Positions 1-18,476 of a stretch of 64,000 nt of DNA are shown here, in pieces. The first letter of the stretch is position 1, and each line of letters begins with the position of its first letter. Made by a program: the position numbers and the translations under genes. The notes beneath the pieces were generated by a model. The model was not told where the DNA came from, ran no database searches, and saw only the letters and a program-made list of their open reading frames with translations. The DNA is from Iphione sp. A-MEVVRFRX5 (taxonomy: Eukaryota). The stretch covers positions 96,100,001-96,164,000 of the forward strand of contig OZ320315.1 in the NCBI GenBank assembly GCA_976226885.1, written 5' to 3'.

Positions 1-2
1 GT

Positions 3-1904
3 ATGAAGGGAAAAATGAAAGAAAATATCCGAAAGAAAAATGAGGAACGAACAAAAAAGAGAAAGCATTTTTTTGAAAAAAATGGTTATGAAGTAATTAG
101 TATGAACGAGTGCTACTTCAGGGAAATGATTCAAAATTCAACAGAGCTTCAAGACTGGGTGAATTTATTTTATCCTGAGTTCACTCGCAAGCATCCTGGA
201 AAGGTCACGACTAAGGATATTTTAAAGGGGGTTTCTGATGGAAGTCTGTTTGGTGCTCTGGAAGTGGATATTTCAGTTCCCAATGATTGGCCTGAAGGAA
301 TGGAGAGGGAACTCTCACCAAAGGAATATTTCTCAGAAATGTGTCCTTTATTTGGAAAGGCAAGTGTCGAATTCAATCATTTTGGCCCCCACATGCAGAA
401 ACATGTCGAAGAACATAATCTATCACGAAATCCGAGAGAGCTTCTGGTCAGTGCTTTGTCTGCTAAAAAGATCCTCATAGCTTCTCCTCTTCTAAAATGG
501 TATATGGAACATGGTTTGCTGGTTACAAAAATTTACCAGATGATTGAATTCGTTCCCAAAGATTGTTTCAAGAAATTTACAGAAGATGTAACAAGTGCAA
601 GAAGACAGGGTGACTCTGATCCTGATAGTGCAGTGATTGCTGACACCATGAAGCTCATAGGGAATTCTGCTTATGGGGGAGTTATCATGCAAAAAGAAAA
701 GCAAATGAATGTAAAATATTTTTCAGATCCCACTGAAACGATCAATGCAATTAATTCTCCCCGTTTCAGAAAAGTAAATGAATTAAATGGTCTTTTTGAG
801 GTAGAATCTGTTAAACCCCGTATTGTTCTCGATATGCCAATTTATATCGGTTTCACCATTTTACAATATGCTAAATTAACTATGTTATCTTTCTATTATG
901 ATTGTATAGACAGACTTATTCCTAGAAATCATTTTCAATACGTAACTATGGATACCGACAGTGCTTATATTGCTTTTGCATACGAAAACTTTGAAGACAA
1001 CATCTTTGATGATAAGAAGATGGAGTATGTCAGTGAGATCAGGGATAGATGTGATGATAAGCTCTCTCCGATTTGGTTCATGCGACAGTGTTGTGGCAGA
1101 CATCATTCATTTGACAGAAGAGTTCCAGGGATCATGAAAGAGGAGGCGAGAGGCGATTCCATCATAGCACTGACCAGTAAGACTTATGTTTTAGATAACA
1201 AGGGTGTGTCAAAATTCAGTTGTAAAGGAATTTCAAAATCTAAGGTGACAGAACCCTTAGCGTTGTATTCTTCAGTTCTGGAAACACAGATTCCTAAATC
1301 AGGTACCAATTCCGGTTTCCGAGCTCGAGACGGAACAATTTTTACATATAGGCAGGAACGAGTGGGATTTTCTTACTTCTATGTAAAGAGAATCGTTCAT
1401 GATGATGGAATCAATACCTCACCTCTTCAGATCACATTATCCCCATGGAATGTTGATGATTATTTTATAATTGCTAAACCCTGGGAAGTCTTGAATCCCT
1501 TTTACAGATGGCAACTTGCTGGTTTTCAATCTTTGTTTCACATGTTTTATTATAACCTCGCCGTATTTCACCGTGCAACCGAAGTGGCTCGATTAATTCA
1601 TTCTTCTTCTGATCCAAAAGAAATGAAGTCATTACTTTCTTTCATAAAACCTAATGAGAATCTCGAAGAGGTTAATCTCAAAATCATGAGGGATCTCATG
1701 TTGTATATAGCTAGAACTTTTCCTGAAGTGAGGAAAGAACTCTCTCATTGTAAAAAGATTGTATATGCTAGTCTAGACAGGTTTTGGGGTGTAGGAATGG
1801 ATGTTGGAAATGTGAAAATTTCTCGACCATGTGAATTCAAAGGAAAGAATAAACTCGGGGAGTTATGGGAAGAGGTGAGAGTACGCATGGAGTTGAATAA
1901 ATGA
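3..1904 (+). CDS. Protein-primed family B DNA polymerase (pPolB), C-terminal part, with a C-terminal NADAR-like extension; 5'-partial
   Basis: Motif B KLIGNSAYG (~651-677), motif C YVTMDTDS (~939-962), KTY and KFSCKG motifs, terminal KR...DGINTSPL. The N-terminal stretch KHFFEKNGYEVISMNECYF resembles the end of the VSR-like insertion of Polinton polymerases. AATAAA at 1896-1901. Confidence 0.95.
   Translation: MKGKMKENIRKKNEERTKKRKHFFEKNGYEVISMNECYFREMIQNSTELQDWVNLFYPEFTRKHPGKVTTKDILKGVSDGSLFGALEVDISVPNDWPEGMERELSPKEYFSEMCPLFGKASVEFNHFGPHMQKHVEEHNLSRNPRELLVSALSAKKILIASPLLKWYMEHGLLVTKIYQMIEFVPKDCFKKFTEDVTSARRQGDSDPDSAVIADTMKLIGNSAYGGVIMQKEKQMNVKYFSDPTETINAINSPRFRKVNELNGLFEVESVKPRIVLDMPIYIGFTILQYAKLTMLSFYYDCIDRLIPRNHFQYVTMDTDSAYIAFAYENFEDNIFDDKKMEYVSEIRDRCDDKLSPIWFMRQCCGRHHSFDRRVPGIMKEEARGDSIIALTSKTYVLDNKGVSKFSCKGISKSKVTEPLALYSSVLETQIPKSGTNSGFRARDGTIFTYRQERVGFSYFYVKRIVHDDGINTSPLQITLSPWNVDDYFIIAKPWEVLNPFYRWQLAGFQSLFHMFYYNLAVFHRATEVARLIHSSSDPKEMKSLLSFIKPNENLEEVNLKIMRDLMLYIARTFPEVRKELSHCKKIVYASLDRFWGVGMDVGNVKISRPCEFKGKNKLGELWEEVRVRMELNK
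1458..1901 (+). other. NADAR (YbiA-like) domain fused in frame to pPolB
   Basis: Aligns by eye with the YbiA/NADAR pattern: VLNPFY..FQSLFHMFYY, SSSDPKEMK, KIMRDLM, VYASLDRFWGVG, FKGKNKLGELWEEVR (cf. YbiA VEHTENDAYWGDG...GKGKNRLGYLLMELR). Confidence 0.8.
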
Positions 1905-1947
1905 AAAAAAACTAATTTGTTTCAGTTATTATTTCATTGCACTGCAA

Positions 1948-1954
1948 TATAAAA
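1948..1954 (+). promoter_or_regulatory. TATA box of the ATPase-to-protease gene block
   Basis: TATAAAA 48 nt upstream of ATG 1996, just after the pPolB poly(A) signal. Confidence 0.5.
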
Positions 1955-1995
1955 CCATAAGTTTGTATTTTGTCTTGACATATTGTGTTCTCACA

Positions 1996-2618
1996 ATGTC
2001 TGAACTAGACATACCATCGTTCAGCTTCGCTACACCAAGCACCATATCCATTTCTGGAGCCACCTCTTCTGGTAAGACATATTTCGTGAAGAAACTCATC
2101 CGATATAGAAAACAACTGTTTGAAAAAAACCTTTCAAAAAAATCGTATATTGTTATGGTGCTTGGCAAACTGGATTTCAAGATGTTAAAGATGTTGAATT
2201 CCGCGAGGGAATCAATTTGGAAGATTTGAAAGAAGGTGGAAGAATTCTTTTGATACTAGACGACTTGATGGATATTGTAGTGAACGATTCGGAAATTCAG
2301 CATTTGTTTACTAGAGGATCTCACCATAGGGATATTACTATTATTTATATGAATCAGAATTTATATTGTCAAGGAAAATGTGCCAGGACAATTGCTCTCA
2401 ATTCTCAATACTTAGTGCTGTTTAAAAATCCACGGGATATTCAACAGATAACACGTCTGGCACAACAAGTCGGAATGCCGAGCATAAAGGAAGCATATAA
2501 AGACGTCACTTCCGAACCATTTGGTTATTTAGTGGTCGACCTCCATCCACGCAATCACACTGAAGTCAAGTTAACCTCTCACATTTTCCCTGACGAGGTT
2601 CTCGTTTGGTACAAATGA
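1996..2618 (+). CDS. DNA packaging ATPase (A32/FtsK-HerA type), split by a -1 frameshift in the A7 run at 2123-2129
   Basis: Walker A GATSSGKT in ORF 1963-2229. The -1 frame continues KPFKKIVYCYGAWQ...ILLILDDLM (Walker B)...LFTRGSHHRDITIIYMNQNLY into ORF 2217-2618. Corrected product ~207 aa. Confidence 0.9.
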
Positions 2619-2941
2619 AGAGTCCACGGATCAACAACCAGAAAGACTTTCTCACTCTTCTTCTGAACACTCCAAACAAGAACCAAGCAGAAGCACTCTT
2701 GTACACTGTAACCCCAGACCAGGCATTAGTCTTGAGCGAGATTGCTTTTAATTTAAACAATCTCCCTATCCCTCAACCAGTCAGAAGAGTCGTTGACAAG
2801 AATATAAGACTCATCAAGAATCTTAGTGATCCCACTTCCTCATTGAAAAAGAAAGCTAAACTGATAGCACATCAACGTACTCAGCTATATCGCATTCTTC
2901 TTTCAATCAAACCAGATCTATTTAAACTGATGAGAGAATGA
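2615..2941 (+). CDS. Small basic Polinton core-block protein (108 aa)
   Basis: ATGA overlap with the ATPase stop; LLL...ALVLSEIAFNL...SLKKKAKL pattern like small Maverick ORFs next to the ATPase. Confidence 0.65.
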   Translation: MKSPRINNQKDFLTLLLNTPNKNQAEALLYTVTPDQALVLSEIAFNLNNLPIPQPVRRVVDKNIRLIKNLSDPTSSLKKKAKLIAHQRTQLYRILLSIKPDLFKLMRE

Positions 2942-17751: not shown

Positions 17752-17920
17752 TGTAAATGAATAAAATCGTGAAGATGAAGAAAAAACTGCTTTTTCTCTC
17801 CAACCTCTGTGAAACGAATGTGCTAAATCTGACACAATTGTATGACTTTTATAGTCTGGACATAGGAGAAACGATATTACACAATAGCTAGAAACACATT
17901 TACTTCCAATAAAATGAATA

Positions 17921-17993
17921 TACCTAGACACGGGTTCGAACCGTGAACCTTCAGAACTTCAGTCTGACGCTCTCCCAATTGAGCTATCTAGGT
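17921..17993 (-). tRNA. tRNA-Phe (GAA), 73 nt, intronless, encoded inside the Polinton
   Basis: Minus strand ACCTAGA TA GCTC AATTGGGA GAGC G TCAGA CTGAAGT TCTGA AGGTT CACGG TTCGAAC CCGTG TCTAGGT A: all four stems perfectly paired, A- and B-box intact, TTTT 6 nt downstream. Confidence 0.93.
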
Positions 17994-18225
17994 TCTGTTT
18001 CATTTTTTCAAACATACAAGGCATACACAAATTAGAAAACATTTTCCTGATTTCGTTCAAACTGGCTGATACACGTATTGCACCACTTCGTATCAACATG
18101 CTAACTGAAATACGAATTGCACCACATTGTAACAAAAAATGAAACACATATTGCTCCACGAATTTGCTTTTACTTCGTCACTGAGATATGTATTGCATTA
18201 CTTCATAAGCAAGCAATGACAAAAG

Positions 18226-18363
18226 CAGGCTGACAGGTGTTGCAATACTTCGTAAGCAGCCAATCACAGAACAAGCTGACAGGTGTTGCAATACTTCGTA
18301 AGCAACCAATCACAGTACAGGCTGACAGGTGTTGCAATACTTTGAAACCAACCAATCACAGAA
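18226..18363 (+). repeat. Three 46-bp tandem repeats, each with a CCAAT box, in the Polinton terminal region
   Basis: caggctgacaggtgttgcaatacttcgtaagcagccaatcacagaa at 18226, 18272, 18318; degenerate copies upstream. Confidence 0.9.
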
Positions 18364-18420
18364 CATATTGATTGCATAACTTTGAAAACAACGAATCACA
18401 GACTGTGACATCACAGAGGT

Positions 18421-18476
18421 CACGGCTCAGCCAATCAGGAGAAACTTTTCGCGACCCCTTACCCCACTATACTACT
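18421..18476 (-). repeat. Outer end of the right terminal inverted repeat (5'-AGTAGTATAGTGGGG...)
   Basis: Matches the known AGT-repeat terminus of Polintons; the partner TIR is not in the window. Confidence 0.75.

Follow-up and report, generated by a model that had tools for sequence, protein, structure and literature searches.

Mavericks, or Polintons, measure 12.7-24.6 kb, carry terminal inverted repeats (TIRs) of 46-1,447 bp with AGTAGT//ACTACT ends, and are flanked by 6-bp target-site duplications (TSDs) (PMC8097293; PMC8502044). Together with adintoviruses (Barreat and Katzourakis 2021; Starrett et al. 2021), they encode a protein-primed family B DNA polymerase (pPolB), an ATPase, an rve integrase, a protease and inferred capsid genes, next to an accessory region with poorly characterized genes. 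IAP and Bcl2 homologs have been reported in adintoviruses (PMC8502044) and tRNAs in Polinton-like viruses (PMC12220804), and the pPolB itself is a long multidomain protein with a TP-vOTU-EXO-PALM organization (Krupovic et al. 2024, 10.1101/2024.03.18.585575). A survey of NADAR/YbiA hydrolases covers phages, large DNA viruses and the polyproteins of RNA viruses, with Polintons named 0 times in the part of it available (Iyer et al. 2022, PMC9503650), and what NADARs do in animals is described as unclear (PMC11125620). Here we describe a Maverick in a 64,000-nucleotide stretch (hereafter the window) of the 1.18-Gb genome of the animal Iphione sp. (contig OZ320315.1, positions 96,100,001 to 96,164,000; G000:C4:96100001-96164000), the polymerase of which ends in a NADAR domain with replaced catalytic residues. 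The element has the pPolB, ATPase, integrase, protease and inferred capsid genes of this group (Table 1); it differs from described Mavericks and adintoviruses in that its core genes all sit on one strand and its accessory genes probably contain introns.

The right end of the element, at position 18476 of the window, is matched inversely 4,965 bases upstream of the window, and the element is therefore 23,441 bp long. It begins with AGTAGT and ends with ACTACT, its 74-bp TIRs have one mismatch between them, and GGTGCC flanks both ends as a 6-bp TSD. The same types of TIR ends and TSD were found in all six sister copies, which are separate stretches taken from the genomic matches to the inferred capsid gene with at least 98% identity. 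A preliminary description, made from the letters of the window, had recognized the Polinton core genes and the crisp right end and had proposed to look upstream for the left TIR and TSD; all of these hold or were found. The element is a Maverick by every testable feature, with the exception of the double jelly-roll capsid fold, which is unconfirmed.

The NADAR domain (PF08719, E = 1.2e-11) corresponds to residues 503-629 of the polymerase open reading frame (ORF) 3..1904, the gene itself starting ~2.8 kb upstream of the window. The preliminary description was right that a NADAR domain is present, but it forms the C-terminal end of the polymerase and is no separate cargo gene. Like the TP-vOTU-EXO-PALM polymerase, this one is long and multidomain and has an inserted endonuclease-like region (by a weak PHROG match), and it adds the C-terminal NADAR-fold domain. 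Among copies of this genome sampled across 150 scored NADAR matches, the domain ends one polymerase frame of 1,583-1,693 codons in 21 of 21; since these copies were picked as NADAR matches, the count shows the fusion and not its frequency. A homologue set was assembled from a search of 1.84 billion representatives, two alignment searches and the own-genome copies. It contains 333 sequences, 250 of them with a polymerase, and NADAR follows the polymerase in 60 (22 own copies and 38 from outside, or 35 after removal of three near-duplicates); these counts are likewise not frequencies because the query was built from fused proteins. The fusion followed by an ATPase was also seen in 2 of 44 metagenome loci.

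In a midpoint-rooted FastTree phylogeny of 194 polymerase cores, all 52 fusions fall on one side (support 0.84), together with 9 polymerases that have shorter NADAR-like tails and 19 without NADAR, and none of the 114 polymerases on the opposite side carries the domain. As judged from these sequences, the fusion marks one polymerase clade. The shortened tails, of 120-130 aa, keep WT(T/C)G and (P)GxN motifs (P0114, P0117, P0121, P0122, P0124, P0126, P0232, P0235 and P0237) and are probably further eroded NADARs. When the NADAR region was used by itself as the query of a word-based homologue search, none of 68 candidates matched, whereas the alignment searches did find matches, and a single-sequence PDB search with NADAR gave chance matches only. 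We found no literature report of a NADAR-polymerase fusion, in a search with most subscription papers and repeat databases outside its scope; the word NADAR has 0 occurrences in the pPolB structure paper (10.1101/2024.03.18.585575), a 2026 preprint on these viruses and the adintovirus paper (PMC8502044), although the supplementary maps of the latter may bear on the fusion. The replicase linkage resembles that of NADARs in RNA-virus polyproteins (Iyer et al. 2022, PMC9503650). The clade-wide, eroding polymerase NADAR is the feature of this element that is most new.

The predicted structure of the domain matches YbiA and the Phytophthora NADAR 8BAU in Foldseek (probability 1.0, E 0.004-0.005). 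In a fold comparison the Z scores are 8.9 for YbiA and 8.4 for 8BAU (rmsd 3.6-3.8 over 124-144 residues), with the next match at 3.8. Predicted structure and Pfam thus agree on a YbiA fold, and the D-x-x-WG and G-x-N-x-LG motifs are shared with NADAR/YbiA hydrolases (PMC11543638; PMC9503650). Within this fold, E43, K50 and E125 are catalytic or essential, and R79, W89, R93, D130 and W133 contact ADP-ribose (Schuller et al. 2023, PMC11543638). Mapped by alignment to 8BAU in the numbering of that paper, E43, K50 and E125 are F, L and Y in the window copy, which, besides being fused to a DNA polymerase, sets it apart from the hydrolases; none of the three sites holds its canonical residue or D or H instead. 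The full triad is missing from 22 of 22 own fusions and from 34 of 35 outside ones; among the latter, three or four have an alignment gap at a triad site, and the one that keeps the triad is P0004. In proteins without a detectable polymerase the triad is complete in 49 of 73 fully covered domains, and so it is in 10 of 12 NADARs from this genome that do not belong to Mavericks. The loss is graded: W89 and often E43 survive in the divergent subfamilies G-J and in outside relatives, and both are gone in the clade of the window copy.

Nevertheless, the domain evolves under constraint. Its dN/dS is 0.13-0.26 in the 13 of 15 pairs that allowed an estimate (the pairs are not independent); the polymerase next to it has 0.04-0.10, and the protease 0.14-0.32. 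Because the catalytic residues are replaced and dN/dS is still low, we infer that NADAR is a dead enzyme retained for a non-catalytic role. A counter-enzyme against ADP-ribosylation, as the preliminary description had suggested, is not supported, since the domain belongs to the polymerase and its catalytic residues are replaced.

Starting from the observed boundaries, gene order, fusion, residue loss and purifying selection, we consider it probable, with moderate confidence, that the dead NADAR is a non-enzymatic replicase module of a young, broken Maverick and that genes other than the polymerase carry the predicted host-directed functions. The ancestor of one polymerase clade would have captured an active guanine-ADP-ribose eraser, which would have removed marks that block the template; its catalytic activity would then have eroded stepwise, and the present fold would most likely offer a DNA- or protein-contact surface in protein-primed replication. 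Among the separate genes, the BIR protein is likely a decoy that engages caspases or IAP antagonists, and the 222-aa protein would likely recruit Elongin BC and Cullin 5 and thereby degrade some host protein. The two membrane proteins would likely each expose a small leucine-rich repeat (LRR) head at the cell surface, and the right tRNA-Phe probably gives a transcript that folds and is charged, which would increase the Phe supply.

Several observations weigh against parts of this proposal. The NADAR model is mediocre (pLDDT 61), and residue mapping therefore rests on sequence alignment. The 19 polymerases of the fusion clade without the domain imply that it is dispensable in some lineages, and a positive role for the dead domain is a guess. 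The 222-aa protein of the window itself has no Pfam match, and its BC box and LPxP box are ~45 residues apart; the BC-box/LP-hydrophobic-P pattern occurs in 9 of 9 members and in 0 of 2000 shuffles of each, but it was written after inspection of the alignment. The best PDB fold matches of the membrane protein TM245 are LRR proteins at a TM-score of ~0.55, none with E <=0.001. Of the two tRNAs, the left one carries G33 and is unpaired at 27-43, and may therefore be unable to decode. Finally, the major capsid candidate has no Pfam, PHROG or PDB match, the PDB search with the capsid alignment included.

Two tRNA-Phe(GAA) genes lie one near each end and point inward, in the window copy as in 6 of 6 sisters. 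The tRNA of the preliminary description is confirmed as the right gene (RF00005, 68.1 bits); the second, more divergent one is near the left end, outside the window (48.4 bits), and both form a cloverleaf with a GAA anticodon. Seven of 11 other fetched tRNA matches are one dispersed sequence, which was taken as the host gene because its flanks are unlike the element ends. Compared with this host-type sequence, 12 of 73 bases of the right tRNA are different, and in three stem pairs both partners have changed. Across 13 distinct sequences, the stems of the standard cloverleaf are 96.7% paired and 7 pairs are changed on both sides; covariation as high was reached in 0 of 500 shuffles, a test that relatedness inflates, and slid controls were far lower. 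Positions 15 and 48, which form a tertiary pair of tRNAs, are G-C or A-U in 13 of 14 aligned rows. tRNA genes can have boundary activity, and the terminal genes might work as DNA, that is, as polymerase III-bound boundary elements or promoters keeping the inserted element open. The inward placement at both ends and the departure of the left copy from canon (G33) fit this possibility, which we hold to be a minor one: the compensated changes in the acceptor, anticodon and T stems, the constant GAA and the 15-48 pairing point to selection on the folded RNA. Phe usage is 5.6-6.5% in polymerases of the tRNA-bearing clade (13 sequences) and lower, at 4.9-5.7%, in others (8 sequences), but this is one clade contrast of little weight. 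Polinton-like virus tRNAs are likewise element-borne, but those elements are from protists and the isotypes are others (PMC12220804), whereas here host-like tRNA-Phe genes stand near both ends of an animal Maverick. One subfamily has two tandem tRNA-Phe genes at its left end (L056:3753-3976), and a Phe-like, element-type tRNA body with a CAA anticodon (L075:172-245) is possibly a decayed copy. An upstream tRNA-Asp call was rejected, being outside the element and without an Rfam match.

Alternatively, the fused NADAR might be a non-catalytic reader or decoy that shields the replicating genome because it still binds a host ADP-ribosyltransferase or DNA with ADP-ribose marks. Two residues of the ADP-ribose pocket are kept in the own copies (D130 in 21 of 22, W133 in 22 of 22), a large repeat family with intact NADARs in this genome suggests ADP-ribosylation pressure in the host, and a phage protein provides a precedent by blocking DarT, probably by direct binding (PMC11481870). 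However, K50, R79 and W89 are each present in 0 of 14 members of the clade of the window copy, and D130 and W133 are the only 2 of the 8 listed residues that the window copy retains. A search for scabin/pierisin-like transferases matched nothing, its controls included, and is uninformative. We regard a reader or decoy as rather unlikely. The wider claim, put forward tentatively, is that an animal Polinton polymerase clade as a whole has domesticated an ADP-ribose eraser, which was active at the clade base and in most branches became a reader or decoy without catalysis. If it were true, it would be the first sign that invertebrates attack replicating Polinton DNA by guanine ADP-ribosylation, and a separate repeat family in the same genome would keep active NADARs against the same defense.

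That repeat family comprises dispersed frames of 400-700 codons with a coiled-coil N-terminus and a C-terminal NADAR, followed by a 230-250-aa ORF (L089-L099). The catalytic residues are intact in 9 of 11 of these loci (150 matches were scored of 4,416 candidates for the NADAR-bearing family). The N-terminal part presumably resembles a retroelement ORF1, and the family may be an undescribed NADAR-bearing mobile element. As direct donors of the polymerase domain these repeats were rejected, as they group apart in the NADAR tree (a short domain, with modest support). The best-scoring NADAR is intronless and intact (L088, G000:C22:27636416-27636865) and is probably the host's own gene. The series from intact to eroded polymerase NADARs, combined with the repeat family, offers a direct test of ADP-ribose marking of animal mobile DNA.

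The preliminary description had combined these genes into one coordinated toolkit, in which an active NADAR, a tRNA against translation shut-off, a BIR protein against apoptosis and LRR proteins hiding the cell would counter several host defenses. The accessory block lies inside the matching termini, so the first objection foreseen in that description, a block outside them, does not apply; all its genes are under purifying selection, the outside fusion P0004 keeps the full triad, and NADARs occur in replicase polyproteins of animal RNA viruses (PMC9503650). On the other hand, the triad is absent from every copy here, and nothing links the tRNA, which need not be anti-host, to a defense pathway. 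Nine further elements, drawn from different subfamilies and all delimited at both termini, were surveyed. All nine have the two membrane genes and the 186-aa gene, six have the 222-aa gene and five have BIR; tRNA-Phe occurs in the same five elements as BIR, and the other four lack both. With the membrane pair in all nine but BIR and tRNA in five, the accessory set is not one unit; its genes probably joined in layers. A single coordinated toolkit is improbable, and of the several defense layers the BIR protein, the SOCS-box gene and the membrane pair stand as predictions, by conservation and motifs, while NADAR as an enzyme does not. It is hardly credible that the accessory genes are neutral host-derived passengers. 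BIR and tRNA are patchy across subfamilies, but each accessory gene has a protease-like dN/dS well under 1 in all estimable pairs, which largely refutes the idea, and synteny is conserved across subfamilies with capsid proteins only 55-60% identical.

The BIR protein was correctly recognized before. Its zinc site, C-x2-C-x16-H-x6-C, is intact, a Pfam search found no RING domain in it, its nearest BIRs by sequence among solved structures are those of NAIP and XIAP, and its dN/dS is 0.16-0.43 (9 of 15 pairs). The 222-aa protein was not listed in the preliminary description. Five of its nine homologues match Pfam SOCS_box (best E 0.0004); an atlas search with it gave no usable match, and a PDB profile search gave chance matches only. 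This family has a BC-box-like stretch and, after it, an LP-hydrophobic-P cullin box, the latter as defined in PMC3355856. The viral Elongin BC/Cullin 5 adaptors HIV Vif and adenovirus E4orf6 have the two boxes in the same order; the 222-aa protein is likened to them by motif, not by sequence homology, and has a long acidic spacer. Of the two surface proteins described earlier as LRR-capped, the type-I membrane ORFs and Cys-capped heads stand, while neither matches an LRR Pfam family at E 0.1. The LRR label therefore rests on the predicted structure of TM245 (head pLDDT 90) and a weak language-model lead for TM251, the atlas matches of which are all LRR and below the 0.9 threshold.

Element class, IAP cargo and element-borne tRNAs are already known, and in these respects the element is not new; the cargo combination, which the preliminary description did not know from Polintons, was not found in the literature searched. 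The available text of PMC8097293 and PMC8502044 makes no mention of the polymerase NADAR, the terminal tRNA-Phe pair, or genes of the SOCS-box and mini-LRR kind. New details are the host-like tRNA-Phe at each end with compensated pairs, the predicted SOCS-box adaptor and the predicted mini-LRR fold. The family adds candidate Polinton host-manipulation genes (the SOCS-box adaptor and the mini-LRR pair) and a structurally selected tRNA.

The window copy is a young, twice-broken member of a large, multi-copy young family. The inferred capsid gene has 93 scored genomic matches of 1,460 candidates, all at least 80% identical, and 13 of the 93 are at least 98% identical, the window copy counted in. 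All six sisters have their own 6-bp TSD, both tRNA genes, a polymerase open at 1,570 aa and an ATPase open at 206 aa, and they are ~99% identical to the window copy where the aligned block spans core genes only. The matching termini, the TSD and these sisters support the young insertion proposed earlier. The ATPase frameshift noted in the preliminary description is real, but it is not the only lesion: an in-frame stop lies early in the polymerase, in its N-terminal part upstream of the window (L011:5609), and is absent from 6 of 6 sisters. The copy is not near-intact in the sense of that description; either lesion may reflect assembly error, for which an A-rich run like that of the frameshift is a typical site. 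An adenovirus-like split of the terminal protein was rejected as an explanation of the stop, as all sisters are open there.

Apart from this stop, the polymerase is a protein-primed PolB by its motifs and its PF03175 relatives, the named ones being mostly from marine invertebrates in the homologue searches. Pox_A32 matched the ATPase of a sister (E 0.003), below the curated cut-off and at the expected position. Profile searches gave no family match for the minor capsid and core-like candidates, and the inferred major capsid protein is conserved in the scored genomic matches and in Polinton-like contigs. Polymerase and capsid alignments scanned against viral contigs found no relative.

Table 1. 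Features of the element within the window (positions in the window)
Feature	Position	Strand	Remarks
3' part of protein-primed family B DNA polymerase	3..1904	+	motifs KLIGNSAYG, MDTDS; relatives carry PF03175
C-terminal NADAR-fold domain of polymerase	1440..1901	+	catalytic residues replaced
Packaging ATPase	1996..2618	+	frameshifted in A-rich run near 2120-2145; single 206-aa ORF in 6/6 sisters
Two conserved small ORFs (108, 128 aa)	2615..3324	+	ATPase-integrase interval
rve integrase with C-terminal chromodomain	3297..4409	+	PF00665 E 1.7e-9
Inferred minor capsid protein (122 aa) and basic core-like protein (100 aa)	4449..5116	+	by position and conservation only
Inferred major capsid protein, 452 aa	5100..6458	+	by position, size and conservation
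Adenain-like cysteine protease	6439..6921	+	Peptidase_C5 E 0.006, below cut-off; expected position
Type-I membrane protein TM245	7131..7868	-	predicted mini-LRR head, Ser/Thr stalk, transmembrane helix; probable 3'-end splice donor
Second type-I membrane protein TM251	8354..9007	+	Cys-capped LRR-like head; 217 aa from start common to sisters
Pro/Ser-rich low-complexity ORF	9574..12906	+	six RRSxR repeats; ends at probable splice donor
Cys/His-containing conserved ORF, 186 aa	14045..14605	-	no family match
Conserved 88-aa ORF	14853..15119	-	
222-aa protein, predicted split SOCS box	16025..16693	-	BC box and LPxP cullin box
Single-BIR protein	17230..17751	-	without RING; PF00653 E 3.2e-15
tRNA-Phe(GAA)	17921..17993	-	61/73 bases identical to dispersed host-type copy
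Subterminal 46-bp tandem repeat	18193..18365	.	
Right terminal inverted repeat, 74 bp	18403..18476	.	ends ACTACT
Target-site duplication GGTGCC	18477..18482	+	

Other observations concern the accessory genes and the surroundings of the element. Probable splice donors lie at the ends of accessory ORFs (7140, 8980 and 12885), while vertebrate Mavericks are described as intronless, and an interrupted ORF lies at the left end of the element (L011:4452-5190). Between 12198 and 12788 a 34-aa repeat occurs six times, and every unit contains an RRSxR(L/M) motif, which we take to resemble nucleosome-tethering motifs. Three subfamilies (L055, L064 and L065-L066) have a duplicate of the 222-aa SOCS-box-like gene, once at the left end, and one subfamily has a second short capsid-like ORF after the major capsid gene (L063:8110-8514). 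A metagenome contig (L129) has a weak BIR match directly after a related polymerase. Outside the termini, a tyrosine-recombinase fragment lies ~2 kb to the left of the element (L011:485-1075), and an intronless host EamA-type transporter ORF lies just to its right (20836-21849 in the window).

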